IMG/VR virus record: IMGVR_UViG_2541047798_000006
DNA: 41,828 nucleotides
Source: a virus
Taxonomy: Duplodnaviria > Heunggongvirae > Uroviricota > Caudoviricetes
Reading direction: 5' to 3' (one strand)
Positions 26,571 to 32,957 of this stretch are shown in pieces. Made by a program: the position numbers and the translations under genes. A model generated the notes under the pieces. The model did no database searches and was not told the origin of the DNA. It saw nothing but the letters and a program-made list of their open reading frames with translations. Numbering within the stretch: position 1 is the stretch's first letter; the number at the start of each line of letters is the position of its first letter.

Positions 26571-26604
26571 GGAGTTTACTCACATCTGACAAAATCAATA
26601 TAAA

Positions 26605-26626
26605 CAGCCCCTCCGGAGAGGGGCTG
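26605..26626. terminator. candidate bidirectional terminator hairpin between convergent cargo ORFs
   Basis: cagcccctc-cgga-gaggggctg 9-bp perfect stem. Confidence 0.45.
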
Positions 26627-27017
26627 GAGAGTGGCGCTATGTGCCATTGCATGGTGCCGGGTGCCTCCCGGTGAATTCAGTACCAGCACCTGAATCCGCG
26701 ATTATCCCATATACCTACTCGCTGATTGCCCCACCGCACAGGGGGATTCACCATGCCAGTTTCTTTTAACAAACTCCCCGCAAACCAGACAACAGTCAAC
26801 CGCCTGAATTGTGAAGTATTTAAAAATTTCTCCCGCTAACTGATACCCGGCTAACAGTCTGGCGTTTTCTTTTTCAGCAACGGGAAAGCAACAACCACCA
26901 CACCCGCCACCAGCACACCGTCAGCCAGCACTGACATTATCCGGCTGCTGCAATGCCATTCACAAAAACAGTAAGCAATCACTTTTTACCGTAACAGGTG
27001 ATAATCCAGATATGTAT

Positions 27018-27481: not shown

Positions 27482-27558
27482 TGGCGCGCTGTACTGGATT
27501 CGAACCAGTGACCGATTGCTTAGAAGGCAATTGCTCTGTCCGGCTGAGCTAACAACGC
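27482..27558 (-). tRNA. tRNA-Arg (anticodon UCU)
   Basis: 77 nt; acceptor GCGTTGT/ACAGCGC, T-loop GGTTCGAATCC, anticodon loop CTTCTAA, 3' GCCA. Confidence 0.85.
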
Positions 27559-27571
27559 TGAATACCGATAA

Positions 27572-27652
27572 TGGACCGCCATCGGGGACCCGCCCCCCGC
27601 ACCAACAACCCTGTTATCGTGTCGTCTGCTCTTCCTGATAAGCTAATGGCGG
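27572..27652 (-). other. degenerate tRNA-like element between the two tRNAs
   Basis: acceptor CCGCCAT/ATGGCGG with T-CCA tail, D-stem GCTT/GAGC, T-stem CGGGG/CCCCG, but non-canonical T-loop GGCGGGT and no foldable anticodon arm. Confidence 0.3.
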
Positions 27653-27659
27653 TTTGTGA

Positions 27660-27735
27660 TGGTGGCCCTTGCTGGATTTGAACCAGCGACCTGGCGATTA
27701 TGAGTCGCTCGCTCTCACCACTGAGCTAAAGGGCC
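27660..27735 (-). tRNA. tRNA-Ile2-like (anticodon CAU; could be read as Met)
   Basis: 76 nt; closely resembles E. coli ileX from memory; anticodon loop CTCATAA. Confidence 0.85.
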
Positions 27736-27878: not shown

Positions 27879-28700
27879 TTACCTAGTTACCTTTTTTAAC
27901 TGCCGCTCAGCCCATGCTTCTTCAATATCAAACCGGGTCACCAGCGCATCATAGAATTTCTTAACTGTTTTTTCCCATGACGCGCGTGTTATCTGGTTTG
28001 TCACCTCGCATATAGCATTAAATGCCTCCGTTGATGGTAGTCTTTCATAGCCACGACCACCACAACGCTGGCAGTCTCTGATAACAGGCATACCACGTTT
28101 TACCGACTCTTCACGATGAATGGCGACACCACGCCCACGGCAATCCTTACAGGCGGTGGAAACCTCACCCTTTCCGCCACACTCCGGACAGGCAACTTTT
28201 ACCACCTCCCTGACTTTTTTCCATTCTTCCCAGTAAGACGGATACACACCTTTCGTACACTTTGCCCATACCGGCGGCTTACCATCCGGATACTGGACCT
28301 TGTTTGTAAAAACTACGCTTTCAATAAATTTTTCCCCATAGCAACAAGGGCACTGCTTTTTACTCGCTGCGCTGCGGGCATAATCCTCAAAAGCGTACGA
28401 AGCCATAATGCGCATCACTAACGGTTTTATTTCTGCCGGAAGTTTTCTCAACGCCGCCACACGATCGCACCGACTGAGTGCATAATCTGCCAGTAATTCT
28501 GTTGCCCGCGCCCTGTCATTCATACTGATGCCCATTTTCCCCAGGAACGCAGAAAACCCCATCTCAGCCCGATTCTGTGTCATGCCCTGCGCGGCCATCA
28601 CATCAGTGATACTCAGCGCATCTTTTGACGTTGAGGCCGATACATCGGTCAGGCCAGGGGATTTTGGGGAGTAGTATTTCGGTAAATCTTCCAGTTTCAT
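27879..28700 (-). CDS. Q: antitermination protein Q (zinc-finger, phage 82/QuuQ-like)
   Basis: 273 aa with CPECGGKG, CKDCRGRG, CQRCGGRG motifs; sits upstream of pR'/tRNAs/lysis genes. Confidence 0.75.
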   Translation of the reverse strand: MKLEDLPKYYSPKSPGLTDVSASTSKDALSITDVMAAQGMTQNRAEMGFSAFLGKMGISMNDRARATELLADYALSRCDRVAALRKLPAEIKPLVMRIMASYAFEDYARSAASKKQCPCCYGEKFIESVVFTNKVQYPDGKPPVWAKCTKGVYPSYWEEWKKVREVVKVACPECGGKGEVSTACKDCRGRGVAIHREESVKRGMPVIRDCQRCGGRGYERLPSTEAFNAICEVTNQITRASWEKTVKKFYDALVTRFDIEEAWAERQLKKVTR

Positions 28701-29071
28701 TTTTTGACCTGCTCTTCATGCATTATGGGGTAAATCTTCACCCCCATACGTCCACCAGATACTGGCTGACCACGAACGATATTGATTTCATCAAACTGCT
28801 CATCGTCCATTAACACTCCCGCATGCGTCAGCGCATCCAGCGGTGCTTTCAGGATATTGTCCAGGTCGCGACGACGCTTATCCGGTGGCTCTGCAATCAC
28901 CTTTATCGCCAGCCTTCCGGACAGGCTTAATTTCAGCCGCTGCTGGCGAACAATAAGCGCCACAGCCCGGCGATAACGCTTTCCCTCCTCCGAGATAAAA
29001 TATGTGCTGCCACGGCGTCGCCAGTAAGTGTTCACCGTCGGCGGGTAAGGTAAAACCAAATCTATGAGCAT
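28697..29071 (-). CDS. rusA: Holliday junction resolvase RusA
   Basis: 124 aa ...LPYPPTVNTYWRRRG...PDKRRRDLDNILKAPLDALTHAGVLMDDEQ. Confidence 0.85.
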   Translation of the reverse strand: MLIDLVLPYPPTVNTYWRRRGSTYFISEEGKRYRRAVALIVRQQRLKLSLSGRLAIKVIAEPPDKRRRDLDNILKAPLDALTHAGVLMDDEQFDEINIVRGQPVSGGRMGVKIYPIMHEEQVKK

Positions 29072-29083
29072 CAGTCACCTCTT

Positions 29084-30133
29084 TTACCCAAGCACGCCAG
29101 TTGCAAAGGCGTGATCAAGAAAACGAAAAATTAAATCAACCTGAGAACCATGCTTTTGTTCGAACGCCAGAGGATCCGCATGAAGCTCGTTGTGATGCTC
29201 CCGACACAGCGGTAGCGTGAAAATATCGTGAGATTTTGTCCCCATTCCGCCCTGACCATGACCAATCAGGTGATGGGGATCGTCGGCTGGCTTACCACAA
29301 CACGCACACGGCTGTGTCTTCACCCAGCGTGTGTATTTCTCGTTAACCCAGCGGCGACGTTTAGGTCGTTTCATGAAAGATTCCGGAGACTCAGGATCAA
29401 CGGCAATGCTGACCACCGTCTTTTCCTGTGGTGGGTTCTGTTGCTGGTGGGCGTGAGGCAGCGGCGCAATATTTTTTGTGCGCTGTTTCAGTATGCTGGT
29501 GGCGGTCTGCTCTCCCGGTACGATGTCGCTTTCACGGTACATTGAGCGGATTTTTTCCGCACGCAACCCCAGCGAACGACGTAATACCGCTTCCGGTAGC
29601 GCGTCCGCCACCTGATTGCGGACCGCCCACCAGGATAATTCAGCCAAAGATAATTCACGCTCCTGCGTACCGCTTATTGCGTGACCGATGACGTCAATCA
29701 TCCATGCTGACAGGTTTTGATGAGCAAGTTGCCCGAGTGATTCGGATGTCTGGTCACGCAGCTGGTTGTCGCAGTGCCAGCACAACACCATTGCGCCGGT
29801 ACCATAACGGTGAATGACGGTTTCGCTGTGATGATAATCGCCGTGTGGCCACTGGCAGGATTTAATATGGCGCAACAGCCAGTCAGACAATGCACCAGCA
29901 CCACCAGCAGCACGAATTACCCGTGCGTTACTGAAAAACGGCAGCAATGTTTTGTCTTCCACCAGCGGCTGGCGAACGGCAGGAACGACCCCGGACGGCA
30001 GATTACGCATGCTTTTCGGTTCCGGCTCCACCAGTAGCCGGGTATTGTGGAATACCGGCATGGATTCACGGCCCGGCTTAACGATCACCAGCCCGAGTTC
30101 CGGTACCAGAACAGGTCGAAGTAATACCCGCAC
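29084..30133 (-). CDS. DUF968/YdfU-like protein with C-terminal HNH-like Cys/His cluster
   Basis: 349 aa; C-terminus CACCGKPADDPHHLIGHGQGGMGTKSHDIFTLPLCREHHNELH; GTG start. Confidence 0.6.
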   Translation of the reverse strand: MRVLLRPVLVPELGLVIVKPGRESMPVFHNTRLLVEPEPKSMRNLPSGVVPAVRQPLVEDKTLLPFFSNARVIRAAGGAGALSDWLLRHIKSCQWPHGDYHHSETVIHRYGTGAMVLCWHCDNQLRDQTSESLGQLAHQNLSAWMIDVIGHAISGTQERELSLAELSWWAVRNQVADALPEAVLRRSLGLRAEKIRSMYRESDIVPGEQTATSILKQRTKNIAPLPHAHQQQNPPQEKTVVSIAVDPESPESFMKRPKRRRWVNEKYTRWVKTQPCACCGKPADDPHHLIGHGQGGMGTKSHDIFTLPLCREHHNELHADPLAFEQKHGSQVDLIFRFLDHAFATGVLG

Positions 30134-30134
30134 G

Positions 30135-30413
30135 TTACCTCCAGATGCGTTGCTGGAATGTACGGGACGGACGCGGTGGGCGTTCGGAGTAAGGCAATCT
30201 GACTGAGATTATCCAGTGACGGTAGTCGAGACTAAGAGCTTTCTTAACCTCGTATCCGCGCCTGCGGTAACACTGAATTATCCATTCAGCCTGCTCTTCA
30301 GTGCATGGAGGGTGCTGGAACCATTCAGACTTGAATGCGTGAGAATACCGCTCGTGCGTGCAGGCAAGAACGGGCGAATTATCAGAATTGTAATATTTTA
30401 CGTTGCGTGCCAT
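30135..30413 (-). CDS. hypothetical protein translationally coupled to the DUF968 gene
   Basis: 92 aa; stop at 30135-30137 one nt from the downstream start. Confidence 0.45.
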   Translation of the reverse strand: MARNVKYYNSDNSPVLACTHERYSHAFKSEWFQHPPCTEEQAEWIIQCYRRRGYEVKKALSLDYRHWIISVRLPYSERPPRPSRTFQQRIWR

Positions 30414-30479
30414 CGGTTTTCTCCGGTGGCACGGTGTTACTCAGCGGGAGTTCAGCCCCGCGCAAGATTGTAGATGAGT

Positions 30480-30846: not shown

Positions 30847-30878
30847 AAAATAAAAACAAAAACCCGCCGAAGCGGGTT
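30847..30878 (-). terminator. intrinsic terminator at hok mRNA 3' end
   Basis: - strand aacccgcttcggcgggtttttgtttttatttt. Confidence 0.65.
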
Positions 30879-30946: not shown

Positions 30947-31102
30947 TTACTCCTCAGGTTCGTAAGCTGTGAAGACAGCGACCTCCGTCTGGCCGGTTCG
31001 GATTCGTACCTCGCAGAGGTCTTTCCTCGTTACCAGTGCCGTCACTATGACGGTTAAACAGATGACGATCAGGGCGATTAACATCGCCTTTTGCTGCTTC
31101 AT
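30947..31102 (-). CDS. hok: Hok-family type I toxin (HokD/RelF-like)
   Basis: 51 aa MKQQKAMLIALIVICLTVIVTALVTRKDLCEVRIRTGQTEVAVFTAYEPEE. Confidence 0.85.
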   Translation of the reverse strand: MKQQKAMLIALIVICLTVIVTALVTRKDLCEVRIRTGQTEVAVFTAYEPEE

Positions 31103-31650
31103 AGCCTGCTTCTCCTTGCCTTTCGGCACGTAAGAGGCTAACCTACATGTGTCTAGCATGAAATTGGCCTCAGATTAATGTTAAGCGTCTTGCAGGACGC
31201 GTAATGTTAACTGGGGCTTTTCTCTATCTGCCGTTGGTGTTATGCCCGAGGCAGATAGCCTCAAGCACCCGCAGCCATTCTACTTAACTACCGTTACCTC
31301 GCCAATGTGAAATCAGTCAGAAAGGCGATCCATAAGAACAATAGCAAGACAATAAATCGCCATTACAGCCGTAATAGCCAGCGCACATTTGAGAACCAGC
31401 ACCACAACCTCCTGTATTGGACGTACACCAGTCCTGATGAATATGAGGCTGTCTCGTCAGTGATTCAATACAACTATTGGGTATAGTTTCTCTGATTTTT
31501 TCTGTGGAAATGGGGCTCAACCACTAGTCATTTAATACGCAAAGTCCGATACAAGCTAACCTTCTAGTCCGCTTTGAGCGAAAAGCGGACGTTGGAAGTT
31601 TAAAACTCGCGAACTACTCAGCGTCCATTGATGCGTATTGTGTAACGTGA

Positions 31651-32295
31651 TTAACCACAGATGATATTGAAACGTTCTCCGGAAATCTTGACCATAATGT
31701 CAGACAGTTCGCTGACGGCATGGGCTTCAGATGATCCCAGAGCGTCAGGCTGAACAGCTATTACCGAAGCTCCACTTGCCAGCCCTGCTTTTATACCCGC
31801 AGATGCATCCTCAAATACCACGCATTCACCAGGCTCAAGGCCCAAAGCCAAAGCTGCTTTGATGTAACCCTCGGGACTTGGTTTTCCCGTCATTACATCT
31901 TCTGCACACACCATTACTATGGGTAAGGGGAGATTAGCCGCTTTCATCCTGTTTTCTGCAAGCATTCTGCCTGCAGAAGTGACAAGTGCCCAGCTATCCG
32001 GTGGCAGTTTTGATAAGAGTGCAGCGGCCCCTTTTACTTCAGTAACGCCTTCTGTCATGTTGATTTCAACCTCTTCGAGTGAGGCCGCGATTTTATTGGT
32101 TTTCTCACCTGCACCAATAAAATGCGTCAGTGTATCAATCGTTTGCCGCCCGTGTGCGTAAGCAATCACAGCCTGAGTATCAAGACCGTATTCTGCACAA
32201 AAATCTCTCCAGACGCTTTCCACTACGGCTGTTGAATCAACCAGCGTACCGTCCATATCGAATAAAAAACCCTTAGCGTTGAATATCATTGCCAT
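31651..32295 (-). CDS. HAD-superfamily hydrolase (phosphatase-like)
   Basis: 214 aa, DxDGTL-type motif FDMDGTLVDS near the N-terminus. Confidence 0.8.
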   Translation of the reverse strand: MAMIFNAKGFLFDMDGTLVDSTAVVESVWRDFCAEYGLDTQAVIAYAHGRQTIDTLTHFIGAGEKTNKIAASLEEVEINMTEGVTEVKGAAALLSKLPPDSWALVTSAGRMLAENRMKAANLPLPIVMVCAEDVMTGKPSPEGYIKAALALGLEPGECVVFEDASAGIKAGLASGASVIAVQPDALGSSEAHAVSELSDIMVKISGERFNIICG

Positions 32296-32318
32296 TCCTT
32301 AATGGTTGCAGAAGAAAG

Positions 32319-32957
32319 TTAATCAAACCATGTTTTTTCATCACCTTTCGCTACTCTCAGGCTGACAGCAATCTGCTCAGGCACAATTCTTGAAAGCGAC
32401 AATTCAGGCAGGTCGTTGACATCAAAAAAATCAGCATCGAGTGACTCATGGCTGATTGACAGGCTGCCACCTACTTCTTCACAGAGAAAAATCAGCTTGT
32501 AAACATGCCAGGGTAAAGGCGGATGGCCGTGAAGATTACGATCCCAAACTCCCAATAGTTTAGTCACTCTGACTTTTAATCCGGTTTCTTCTTCGACTTC
32601 TCGACGCACAGCTTCAGAAGGTGTATCTCCAACATCTGCCCATCCGCCAGGAAGACTCCATAATCCATCTGCAGCCTCTTTCACCATCAGAATACGATTA
32701 TTACGCAGGATAAACGCACGCACATCTGTTTTGGGCGTCGCGTAACCCGTTTCCGATACATGAAACAAATCATTGCGGCTAATATCAAACTGCGAACTCA
32801 GCAGTCCAGCGGCAATTTCACGCAAGGCTTCATAGCGTTCCTTGTCAAAGACGTCTTTTGAATAGGTCAGGCCTGACTGCGCGAGGGCCTTTAGTCTCTG
32901 GGCAACAAAAATAAGCTTTTCTTGGGTCAACACTTCAGACATGTTTTTCATCTTCAT
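32319..32957 (-). CDS. NUDIX hydrolase with N-terminal extension
   Basis: 212 aa; Nudix box GGWADVGDTPSEAVRREVEEETGL; 23 nt upstream of the HAD gene on the same strand. Confidence 0.8.
   Translation of the reverse strand: MKMKNMSEVLTQEKLIFVAQRLKALAQSGLTYSKDVFDKERYEALREIAAGLLSSQFDISRNDLFHVSETGYATPKTDVRAFILRNNRILMVKEAADGLWSLPGGWADVGDTPSEAVRREVEEETGLKVRVTKLLGVWDRNLHGHPPLPWHVYKLIFLCEEVGGSLSISHESLDADFFDVNDLPELSLSRIVPEQIAVSLRVAKGDEKTWFD

Follow-up and report, generated by a model that had tools for sequence, protein, structure and literature searches.

A YdfU-type DUF968 gene of a lambdoid Escherichia coli prophage is predicted to encode an HNH endonuclease and follows a conserved small ORF

Introduction

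What does the gene in front of rusA and the antiterminator gene Q encode in this prophage, and is the small open reading frame (ORF) that ends one nucleotide upstream of it the gene of a partner protein? The window analysed here is the whole 41,828-nucleotide stretch of IMG/VR virus record IMGVR_UViG_2541047798_000006. A preliminary description of it had noted a 349-aa DUF968 protein with a C-terminal HNH-like Cys/His cluster, translationally coupled to a 92-aa ORF, and had considered a nuclease with a small partner to be plausible. YdfU-type genes are very common and are retained in prophages that have decayed, Qin among them. The assignment of DUF968/YdfU to the His-Me/HNH finger nucleases, as group 7, is already published (Jablonska 2017, PMC5714182). 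The searched literature yielded neither biochemical nor genetic work on YdfU or on any enterobacterial DUF968 protein, nor a published nuclease assay for YdfU or YbcO.

Results

The two ORFs and their junction

Both ORFs were found on the minus strand (Table 1), and the previously described gene order (hokD, rem, 92-aa ORF, DUF968 gene, rusA, Q) was confirmed. The minus strand 5′ of the small ORF reads CCACCGGAGAAAACCG-ATG, and the letters at the junction of the two ORFs are ATC TGG AGG TAA C GTG. The one-nucleotide gap that had been reported is real: the small-ORF stop codon TAA (30137..30135) is separated from the GTG start of the DUF968 gene (30133..30131) by a single spacer base at 30134. 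A GGAGG sequence (30142..30138) lies 4 nt before this GTG, inside the two codons (Trp-Arg) that close the small ORF; the W-[R/G] at the end of its product varies little or not at all across genera. Of 87 related loci, 85 have the junction ATCTGGAGGTAA[C/T]GTG, and the small ORF with a gap of exactly 1 nt is present in all 80 close IMG/VR loci; the pairing of the two ORFs exceeds chance. The GTG start is supported because ATG, GTG or TTG stands at the aligned DUF968 start in all 80 species-level homologues. Because the GGAGG sequence falls within the last codons of the small ORF and the gap is one base, translation of the nuclease gene is probably coupled to that of the small ORF. Of the coupling described earlier, the geometry is thus confirmed, and coupling itself is plausible, as judged from spacing.

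Table 1 Features of the DUF968 locus in the window (positions are those of the whole stretch)
Feature	Position	Strand	Basis or remark
GGAG Shine-Dalgarno-like site	30421..30424	-	7 nt 5′ of the small-ORF ATG; read from sequence
92-aa small ORF	30135..30413	-	ORF list; basic, pI 9.7
Putative coupling junction TGGAGG-TAA-C-GTG	30131..30143	-	Read from sequence
DUF968 (ydfU-type) ORF, 349 aa	30133..29084	-	GTG start
YdfU N-terminal domain, residues 1-130	29744..30133	-	Alignment, AF2
Helical segment (131-190) and variable, low-confidence linker (191-249)	29387..29743	-	AF2
C-terminal His-Me/HNH finger domain, residues 250-349	29087..29386	-	Pfam, hhalign, PDB profile, AF2
Stop codon of the DUF968 gene	29084..29086	-	
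rusA, Holliday-junction resolvase gene	28697..29071	-	Pfam RusA E 2.6e-17; 12 nt downstream of the DUF968 gene
Antiterminator Q gene	27879..28700	-	Pfam Antiterm E 2.6e-55; shares 4 nt with the end of rusA

The 349-aa protein is a YdfU-type member of DUF968

The 349-aa gene is an ordinary DUF968 gene of the ydfU type, carried by a lambdoid E. coli prophage, and its product (called YdfU here) shares 85% identity with YdfU of E. coli K-12 over all 349 residues. Its membership of Pfam DUF968 (PF06147), as named in the preliminary description, was borne out by HMM search (E 4e-77, 258.5 bits; gathering cut-off 27.8 bits), with residues 160-346 covering the full model (positions 1-171), and all 28 aligned relatives also match this family. 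The phrog_96 model, 'HNH endonuclease', matches over the full length of the protein. The match to Pfam HNHc_6 (PF16784) was confined to the HNH part and sub-threshold (22.3 bits versus a cut-off of 26.6 bits); the protein is related to HNHc_6 at the domain level and is not a member. There was no match to Pfam YbcO/DUF1364 (PF07102; 92-position model) at E up to 0.1, to RecA_dep_nuc (Ref, PF16786) or to NinG/Rap (PF05766), and searches of NCBIfam and PADLOC returned no matches. YdfU is predicted to be a zinc-stabilised HNH DNA-cutting enzyme of a known family. A segment matching the small ORF and DUF968 gene pair was found in 4555 of 5426 complete E. coli genomes. Inducible lambdoid phages that have the module include mEp460 and HannyBb, whose DNA is 96% identical. 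Pairwise dN/dS, computed per gene and per segment, was 0.11 for the whole 349-aa gene. The AF2 model of the full protein (pLDDT 85) gives the domain order as an orphan N-terminal domain, a helical segment with a flexible linker, and the His-Me finger.

The C-terminal domain carries the residues of an HNH finger

The Cys/His motifs pointed out earlier are present as C276-A-C-C279-G, P-H287-H288-L and L-P-L-C310-R-E-H313-H314-N-E-L-H318. The HNH reading placed on them held in hhalign, where these residues align to the zinc-ligand and catalytic positions of HNH enzymes; the possibility that they lie off the HNH catalytic positions is countered by a residue-for-residue match to PhiNM1 Gp16 (95% probability, E 4.7e-8), a RecA-interacting HNH nuclease of Pfam HNHc_6 (NAR 2026, PMC12817073). 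The six Gp16 residues mutated in that study (C148, C181, H184, H157, H185 and H189; PMC12817073) correspond to C279, C310, H313, H288, H314 and H318 of YdfU. Mutation of the catalytic His residues of Gp16 relieved its toxicity only partly (PMC12817073). The C-terminal ~75 aa of YdfU also match YbcO (PDB 3G27; hhalign 85%, E 6.6e-6) and, in the HNH core, P1 Ref (78%, E 1.8e-5), and H288 is aligned to H157 of Gp16 and to a His of both YbcO and Ref. Searches of PDB sequences with the single sequence and with the full-length profile found nothing; with the C-terminal profile, 3G27 was the top match at a statistically weak E of 0.033, and the IscB alignment in the PDB profile search puts D303 at the position of the motif Asn. 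AF2 predicts a beta-beta-alpha unit at 285-319 (strands 285-288 and 306-309, helix 311-319), with a pLDDT of 94-98 over most of the unit and 78 over the loop 291-300. A Foldseek search with the whole model gave no significant match (E at least 0.59), and the weak top matches were all HNH enzymes.

The features of the finger are a basic RPK motif (K258), the set C276/C279/C310/H313, His288, D303, and a helix bearing H314 and H318. Going by these alignments and the model, C276, C279, C310 and H313 would hold a structural zinc, H288 stands at the general-base position, and D303, H314 and H318 stand where the catalytic metal is organised or bound. Conservation among 28 diverse relatives is 25/28 for each of H287, H288, H314 and H318 and 28/28 for D303; in the zinc-ligand columns, C276 is kept in 28/28, C279 in 23/28 and C310 in 24/28, and position 313 is Cys in 14 and His in nine. 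Catalysis is not universal in the family, because the HH pair and the last His are lost in three of the 28 relatives and zinc Cys ligands are missing in five. Within the protein, constraint is strongest on the HNH domain (dN/dS 0.05).

The N-terminal domain and linker

The N-terminal domain (dN/dS 0.10) is modelled as a mixed alpha/beta fold that closes with a beta-hairpin plus helix (pLDDT 91). It contains a second Cys/His site, formed by C93, H101, C118 and C121 and followed by D122, which is probably a zinc site given its conservation in the alignment of 28 sequences (C93 28/28; position 101 Cys in 16 and His in 11; C118 28/28; position 121 His in 21 and Cys in seven; D122 26/28). The hairpin and helix with C118-x-x-C121-D122 resemble a treble-clef knuckle. 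The preliminary description had missed this large domain and its separate Cys/His site. No significant fold match to the domain model was found in the PDB (best E 3.7) or in BFVD (best E 0.52). Gram-positive DUF968/HNHc_6 proteins have an Orf/NinB-like N-terminal domain (PMC4118853); such a relationship was rejected for YdfU, lambda NinB giving an hhalign probability of 0.1%. Also rejected was an internal duplication in which the N-terminal cluster (SCQWPHGDYHH...LCWHCDN) would be a degenerate HNH copy, as the two halves align with an hhalign probability of 0.5%. In metagenome proteins the domain is seen fused to tail-fibre, portal or capsid domains; these fusions were discounted as real architectures and read as assembly chimeras or prophage deletions.

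Between the two domains, AF2 places helices at 131-154, 163-172 and 181-187, and pLDDT falls below 50 at 228-238. The linker region varies in length among relatives, and dN/dS is 0.12 in the helical segment and 0.24 in the linker.

Position in the nin-like operon

The neighbouring rusA, annotated in RefSeq as a RusA family crossover junction endodeoxyribonuclease, is part of the same recombination-nuclease block as the DUF968 gene, and Q closes the nin-like early operon. The DUF968 gene is the last or next-to-last gene of the early-right (nin) operon, beside RusA and before Q. In about 71 of 80 species-level loci, the gene that follows DUF968 directly is a Q gene, of one of at least four families; RusA is the immediate DUF968 neighbour in 21 of the 80. 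That the Q genes after DUF968 come from four unrelated families speaks against a specific partnership with Q. NinG/Rap or YbcO is found at this operon position in other lambdoid phages, and none of 240 DUF968 loci has NinG, YbcO or NinB within the 3-5 kb flanks covered, in lineage-biased samples. Mosaic breakpoints occur at the edges of the DUF968 gene, and the terminase genes are about 6.9 kb from it.

The small ORF is a conserved gene that is not confined to DUF968 loci

The 92-aa ORF is a genuine small basic protein gene, as its core has a dN/dS of 0.10. An Escherichia-specific N-terminal extension of 26 aa precedes a conserved core of 66 aa (residues 27-92), and dN/dS is 0.20 for the whole ORF and 0.59 for the extension. 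The core matches the whole of phrog_1212 (model positions 1-66; E 5.3e-36). The ORF has no Pfam family and no similarity to NinF or NinE. Invariant positions in a cross-genus alignment are K28, Y49, L60, D63, W67, L73, P74, P80, R81 and W91, and the tail is conserved, basic and Pro-rich. The family comprises 359 clusters, almost all named hypothetical, with one 'Prophage protein'.

The suggestion of a nuclease and small partner was weakened by the distribution of the two genes: pairing is not obligate, and of 80 species-level loci with DUF968, 58 lack a small-ORF homologue within 5 kb. Where it is missing, Rha/ANT, KilA-N, RusA or methyltransferase genes stand upstream of DUF968, equally tightly joined. 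An apparent rule that the small ORF always precedes DUF968 (160/160 loci, from two samples of 80 that contain the closest relatives only) was overturned by isolated phages in which NinG, YbcO or other genes come next. Across the 80-locus samples and 10 isolated phages that make up the neighbour evidence, the small-ORF family lies directly 5′ of NinG in Gifsy-1, SPN3UB and GF-2, directly 5′ of YbcO in mEp237 and phiES15, and beside unrelated genes in N15 and PY54; in three phages other genes intervene between it and NinG. RusA stands between the small ORF and DUF968 in 13 genome loci and eight viral loci, and the small ORF is often directly 3′ of an Orf/DUF1367 gene. Allele divergence of the small ORF tracks rem (Spearman rho 0.77), not DUF968 (rho 0.19 and -0.01). 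Since there is no obligate co-occurrence, no co-variation and no PADLOC match, the pair does not have the marks of a toxin/immunity or defence pair. On these sequence comparisons, the small ORF is best seen as a conserved resident 5′ of nin-region nucleases (DUF968, YbcO, NinG, RusA) and not as a dedicated subunit or inhibitor of YdfU.

Discussion

Taken as a whole, the evidence is probably best explained by YdfU being a metal-dependent endonuclease of the nin slot and the small ORF a co-transcribed resident of that slot, not a dedicated partner. During lytic growth, YdfU would cut intermediates of recombination or replication (DNA that is branched or bound by RecA), a role that we infer from gene position and from analogy, and that would parallel those of NinG/Rap, P1 Ref and PhiNM1 Gp16. 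The N-terminal domain may supply substrate or partner recognition, and the small ORF would be transcribed together with the nuclease gene and probably be translationally coupled to it.

Other readings give the small protein a function towards the nuclease. It could be a general accessory factor, such as a junction-, SSB- or RecA-binding adaptor, that serves RusA and whichever His-Me nuclease is present in the nin region, and its place directly 5′ of DUF968, YbcO, NinG or RusA, its frequent position directly 3′ of Orf/DUF1367 and the strong purifying selection on its core are in keeping with this; we consider it rather unlikely, however, as mosaic lambdoid phages can conserve a gene order without any physical cooperation, as the small ORF adjoins unrelated genes in N15 and PY54, and as genes intervene before NinG in three phages. 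More specific, and more doubtful, is the proposal that the 66-aa-core protein is a shared cofactor of DUF968, YbcO and NinG on the same intermediate and that the YdfU N-terminal domain is a new DNA- or RecA-recognition module. A nuclease-inhibitor pair, in which the small protein binds and restrains a potentially toxic YdfU and protects the cell by being translated first, would account for the tightly coupled upstream position of the small ORF and for its presence before DUF968 in both sets of 80 close-relative loci; the related Gp16 nuclease is toxic on expression (PMC12817073), and the conserved tail of the small protein could be a binding peptide. Such a pair is nevertheless improbable in view of the 58 species-level loci that have DUF968 and lack the small ORF, the loci where RusA separates the two, the phages in which the small ORF precedes NinG or YbcO, and the absence both of allele co-variation with DUF968 and of PADLOC matches.

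The nuclease activity itself can also be questioned. YdfU might retain the HNH scaffold and yet be mainly a non-catalytic DNA-binding or regulatory protein, acting for example in late-gene switching near Q. The three relatives that have lost the catalytic His residues and keep the zinc Cys and the remainder, the adjacency to Q, an Arsenophonus member annotated as a transcriptional regulator, and the finding that Gp16 toxicity hinged more on the zinc ligands than on the catalytic His (PMC12817073) fit this reading. It is very unlikely given that 25 of 28 relatives retain the residues at the catalytic positions and all 28 retain D303, that the HNH domain is under the tightest constraint, and that the downstream Q genes are of four unrelated families. 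We give hardly any credence to YdfU being a homing endonuclease of the selfish, free-standing kind or an HNH protein that assists the terminase, like HK97 gp74: phage HNH genes are often mobile or packaging-linked (PMC12315714) and the gene has mosaic breakpoints at its edges, but its syntenic position before Q is fixed across genera, it has a large conserved N-terminal domain under strong purifying selection, it is carried by 4555 of the 5426 E. coli genomes, and the terminase genes are not adjacent.

The preferred reading, a nin-slot endonuclease preceded by a slot resident, fills in annotation and leaves the view of lambdoid phages unchanged. The likeness to Gp16 together with the NinG/YbcO slot gives YdfU a concrete, testable function with named candidate catalytic residues, and the recurrence of the small ORF before three nuclease families makes it a cheap target for knock-out or interaction experiments.

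Comparison with known systems

The closest known counterpart, K-12 YdfU of the Qin prophage, shares Pfam DUF968 and a 92-aa ORF upstream, which is likewise separated from ydfU by 1 nt and carries no annotation in the K-12 reference record; in Qin the gene right after ydfU is ydfT (Q), whereas rusA lies between the DUF968 gene and Q in the prophage described here. PhiNM1 Gp16, from a Staphylococcus phage, has an identical C-terminal arrangement (CxxC, x8-H, CREHH, x3-H) and scores above the DUF968 cut-off (29.1 versus 27.8 bits), but it has a NinB/Orf-like N-terminal domain, to which that of YdfU has no similarity, and it adjoins SSB in a Gram-positive phage, a context that differs from that of YdfU. 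YbcO (DUF1364; DLP12, phage 82) aligns over all its 96 aa to residues 274-348 of YdfU and takes the same place ahead of RusA and Q; it lacks the roughly 250-aa N-terminal part of YdfU and has A-H in place of H-H. YbcO has been tied to Ref by FFAS (Kaur and Subramanian). The core of P1 Ref (RecA_dep_nuc, PDB 3PLW), a RecA-dependent HNH endonuclease, aligns to YdfU over PCxxC, LHHI.G and LPLCRxHH, although Ref belongs to a separate Pfam family, has a disordered basic N-terminus where YdfU has a folded Cys/His domain, and lies in another genomic context. Lambda NinG/Rap, a branched-DNA endonuclease, shares with YdfU the pre-Q operon position and the His-Me finger superfamily, but the two have no family-level similarity (hhalign 6.5% over 18 columns, in the CxxC region only).

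The 92-aa and 349-aa ORFs are both genes

As the preliminary description had it, the 92-aa ORF ends one nucleotide before the 349-aa DUF968 gene: the minus-strand junction reads ATC TGG AGG TAA C GTG, placing the GGAGG site ahead of the 349-aa gene within the final two codons of the small ORF, which has its own GGAG 7 nt upstream of its ATG. The gene order is hokD with sok RNA, rem, the pair, rusA, Q and then two tRNA genes (tRNA-Arg and tRNA-Ile by annotation in an identical RefSeq genome), in agreement with the earlier placement of the pair between rem/hok and rusA. The window DNA is an E. coli lambdoid prophage with 100% identity to strain AR_0017 and others, and the two-gene segment was matched in 4555 of 5426 complete E. 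coli genomes. Promoter-like sites and the strong terminator after hokD, all of them consensus matches, suggest that rem and the pair may also be transcribed locally. The HAD-family and NUDIX hydrolase genes look like cargo (moron) genes, and an STnc100 match with tRNA genes downstream of Q is typical for lambdoid and Stx-type prophages.

Coordinates of the pair, of nearby features and of small-ORF homologues in K-12 and N15
Feature	Coordinates	Strand	Details
92-aa small ORF	30413..30135	-	ATG start
349-aa DUF968 gene	30133..29084	-	GTG start
Strong intrinsic terminator	30878..30861		
hokD/sok type I toxin-antitoxin locus	30947..31270	-	Longest ORF 70 aa; RefSeq annotation is a 51-aa Hok
sok	31097..31270		Rfam
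HAD-family and NUDIX hydrolase genes	31651..32957	-	Between replication genes (O, DUF977) and hokD
STnc100 sRNA match and two tRNA genes	26596..26785 and 27485..27735	-	Downstream of Q; STnc100 130 bits
K-12 MG1655 92-aa ORF	NC_000913.3 1644306..1644584 (locus L082, 4307..4585)	-	1 nt upstream of ydfU
Phage N15 small-ORF family member	NC_001901.1 35939..36151 (locus L247, 2501..2713)		HMM E 2.8e-13; unannotated

Both ORFs are real genes, as shown by their dN/dS values and by conservation of the junction and start codon. Median pairwise dN/dS was 0.11 for the 349-aa gene (63 distinct ungapped alleles; HNH domain 0.05, N-terminal domain 0.10, linker 0.24) and 0.20 for the 92-aa gene (47 distinct alleles; codons 27-92, 0.10; codons 1-26, 0.59). 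The junction sequence was conserved in 85 of 87 loci, and the aligned codon was a start codon in all 80 species-level DUF968 homologues (GTG 41, ATG 36, TTG 3). K-12 MG1655 carries an intact homologue of the small ORF that is absent from the reference-record annotation and belongs to a family under purifying selection.

The C-terminal domain of YdfU aligns with HNH proteins

The 349-aa protein is 85% identical to K-12 YdfU, matches Pfam DUF968, the family named in the preliminary description, at 258.5 bits, and matches phrog_96 ('HNH endonuclease') over its full length. DUF968 and DUF1364/YbcO (PDB 3G27) have been put in group 7 of the His-Me finger superfamily by a study that mentions YdfU by name and suggests a part in recombination or repair (PMC5714182), and for YbcO a nuclease function and kinship with P1 Ref have been predicted (PMC4999995); a literature search for ydfU function found no functional study.

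The HNH assignment was examined using a profile of 28 relatives at 26-83% identity, which matched PhiNM1 Gp16 (95% probability, E 4.7e-8), the whole of YbcO (85%, E 6.6e-6) and P1 Ref (78%, E 1.8e-5), and gave no meaningful alignment with lambda NinG (6.5%). In a search of PDB sequences with a C-terminal profile, 3G27 ranked first (E 0.033), and D303 of YdfU aligned with the motif Asn in IscB. Experiments have characterised Gp16 as a RecA-interacting nuclease, and six of its residues (C148, C181, H184, H157, H185 and H189) were mutated (PMC12817073); all six are identical in the 349-aa protein (C279, C310, H313, H288, H314 and H318, respectively). The Cys/His cluster, which with corrected numbering is C276-A-C-C279, H287-H288 and C310-R-E-H313-H314-N-E-L-H318, thus aligns to HNH catalytic positions, and its reading as an HNH motif holds. 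The AF2 model (mean pLDDT 85.4) contains a beta-beta-alpha unit at residues 285-319, and Foldseek matches to the whole model were weak (E >= 0.59), the best ones all being HNH enzymes. The C-terminus very likely has a His-Me fold, and the window copy is probably catalytically active.

Catalysis and zinc binding are not universal in the DUF968 family, since three of the 28 relatives (P0334, P0348 and P0365) have lost the HH pair and last His (H287/H288, H314, H318) and five others lack cysteine ligands with their histidines kept. The former three are full-length and keep the CxxC...CxxC cysteines and the N-terminal domain; their sequences suggest catalytically dead variants that may retain a structural or binding role.

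YdfU carries a separate N-terminal Cys/His domain

Residues 1-130, which did not feature in the preliminary description, form a separate domain outside the Pfam DUF968 coverage (model pLDDT 91, confident). Among the 28 aligned relatives, C93 and C118 were invariant and D122 was present in 26, position 101 was Cys in 16 and His in 11, and position 121 was His in 21 and Cys in 7. Cys/His interchange is a behaviour of metal ligands. This swapping at two positions, together with placement of the last two ligands where a beta-hairpin meets a helix in AF2 models, points to a putative second zinc site. Searched by fold, the domain model matched nothing significantly in PDB (best E 3.7) or BFVD (best E 0.52), and the domain showed no similarity to lambda NinB/Orf or to the HNH half of the same protein. 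In five predicted proteins (P0263, P0313, P0314, P0245, P0293) it is joined to tail-tip, tail-fibre, portal or capsid domains; these are probably assembly chimeras or large prophage deletions and not real architectures.

The small gene as a likely resident of the position 5' of the nuclease block

The small ORF matched phrog_1212 over residues 27-92 and had no relative in Pfam, NCBIfam, PADLOC or PDB; its profile, searched against 5.8 billion proteins, recovered only 359 clusters, and the source-named matches listed were all from Enterobacteriaceae, almost all 'hypothetical' and one a 'Prophage protein'. Members from outside Escherichia are 66-67 aa long (consensus MKKxWFQH..LT.EQA.ELV.RY....TEKSL..D...W.VSA.LPE...PPR...YQQ..W[R/G]); the Escherichia form has an extra, weakly constrained 26-aa N-terminus, and the 92-aa protein is basic (pI 9.7). 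Kinship with NinF or NinE was rejected because no similarity to either was found; these two occupy comparable places in lambda and DLP12. Phage records ON470612.1 and ON470583.1 name it 'toxin to Rem', a name for which support was not found.

A nuclease with a small partner had been called plausible; the nuclease-family part stands and the partner part is weakened. The small ORF precedes DUF968 by 1 nt in 80/80 close loci, and when the 66-aa form was used to seed a further set of 80 loci from IMG/VR, DUF968 followed it in every one (72 adjacent, 8 with RusA between). However, this constancy among close relatives does not extend to the species-level DUF968 loci, 58/80 of which have no small-ORF homologue within 5 kb, and across 87 loci small-ORF divergence tracks rem (Spearman 0.77), not the DUF968 N-domain (0.19) or HNH domain (-0.01), which indicates a mosaic breakpoint at the pair's junction. 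In isolated phages the family lies directly before NinG (Gifsy-1, SPN3UB, GF-2), before YbcO and then RusA (mEp237, phiES15), a few genes ahead of NinG (Eho59, Meifeng, MII_001) or beside unrelated genes (N15, PY54); all ten members were confirmed in the family (E 1e-13 to 1e-25). An invariable association with DUF968 was therefore an artefact of sampling closest relatives only. It is rather unlikely that the small protein works directly, in any way, with YdfU. The most fitting description of the small gene is a conserved occupant of the site immediately 5' of the nuclease block in the nin region. In N15, gene 41, with RNase_T exonuclease and Lar domains, lies just downstream of it.

In Gifsy-1, mEp237 and SPN3UB a 200-aa gene precedes the small ORF and then NinG or YbcO, a hint of a conserved recombination cassette of three genes. 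Pfam identifies the 200-aa gene as DUF1367 in Gifsy-1 only; in mEp237 and SPN3UB its size and annotation suggest the same identity. DUF1367 is annotated as NinB/Orf-related in a phage record.

A survey of 80 DUF968 loci sampled across different species (by record title, mostly Enterobacterales; 46-95% identity) found antiterminator Q, of at least four families, directly 3' of DUF968 in about 71 and RusA, as in the window, in three. Directly 5' were Rha+ANT (25), RusA (18), KilA-N (10), the small-ORF family (9), cytosine methyltransferase (4), Dam-like (3) and others, and the joint was nearly always a 4-nt overlap or few-base gap whichever the neighbour, so tight coupling is an operon property and not specific to the pair. 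RusA was present in 42/80 genome loci and 79/80 close viral loci. None of 240 DUF968 loci, lineage-biased samples with flanks of 3-5 kb, contained NinG, YbcO, NinB, YbcN, NinE, NinF, NinH or NinI, and from the absence of NinG and YbcO, DUF968 looks like an alternative occupant of their position.

Discussion

The analysis shows membership of the family, alignment of the motifs, a predicted fold, selection, synteny and a conserved junction, whereas the enzyme's action is inferred. YdfU would be a DNA endonuclease stabilised by zinc and dependent on Mg/Mn, translated from the early-right transcript immediately ahead of Q with its translation coupled to that of the small ORF; its N-domain would provide recognition, and it could act on branched or RecA-bound DNA in phage replication and recombination, like NinG/Rap, Ref and Gp16. 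By gene position and this analogy, a role on recombination intermediates is tentatively proposed, at somewhat below even chances.

K-12 has a named gene of which the 349-aa gene is a close allele, and the superfamily placement is published, so the finding is already known in kind and nothing unusual in a lambdoid prophage. New here are the residue-level match of YdfU to Gp16, itself newly characterised; the orphan Cys/His N-domain; the argument for DUF968 in the NinG/YbcO slot; and the description of a small-ORF family recurring before three nuclease families. Being unlike NinB/Orf, the N-domain sets YdfU apart from the Gram-positive Orf-HNH proteins of Curtis et al. (PMC4118853) and from Gp16, and the C-terminal ~75 residues of YdfU are equivalent to a whole YbcO.
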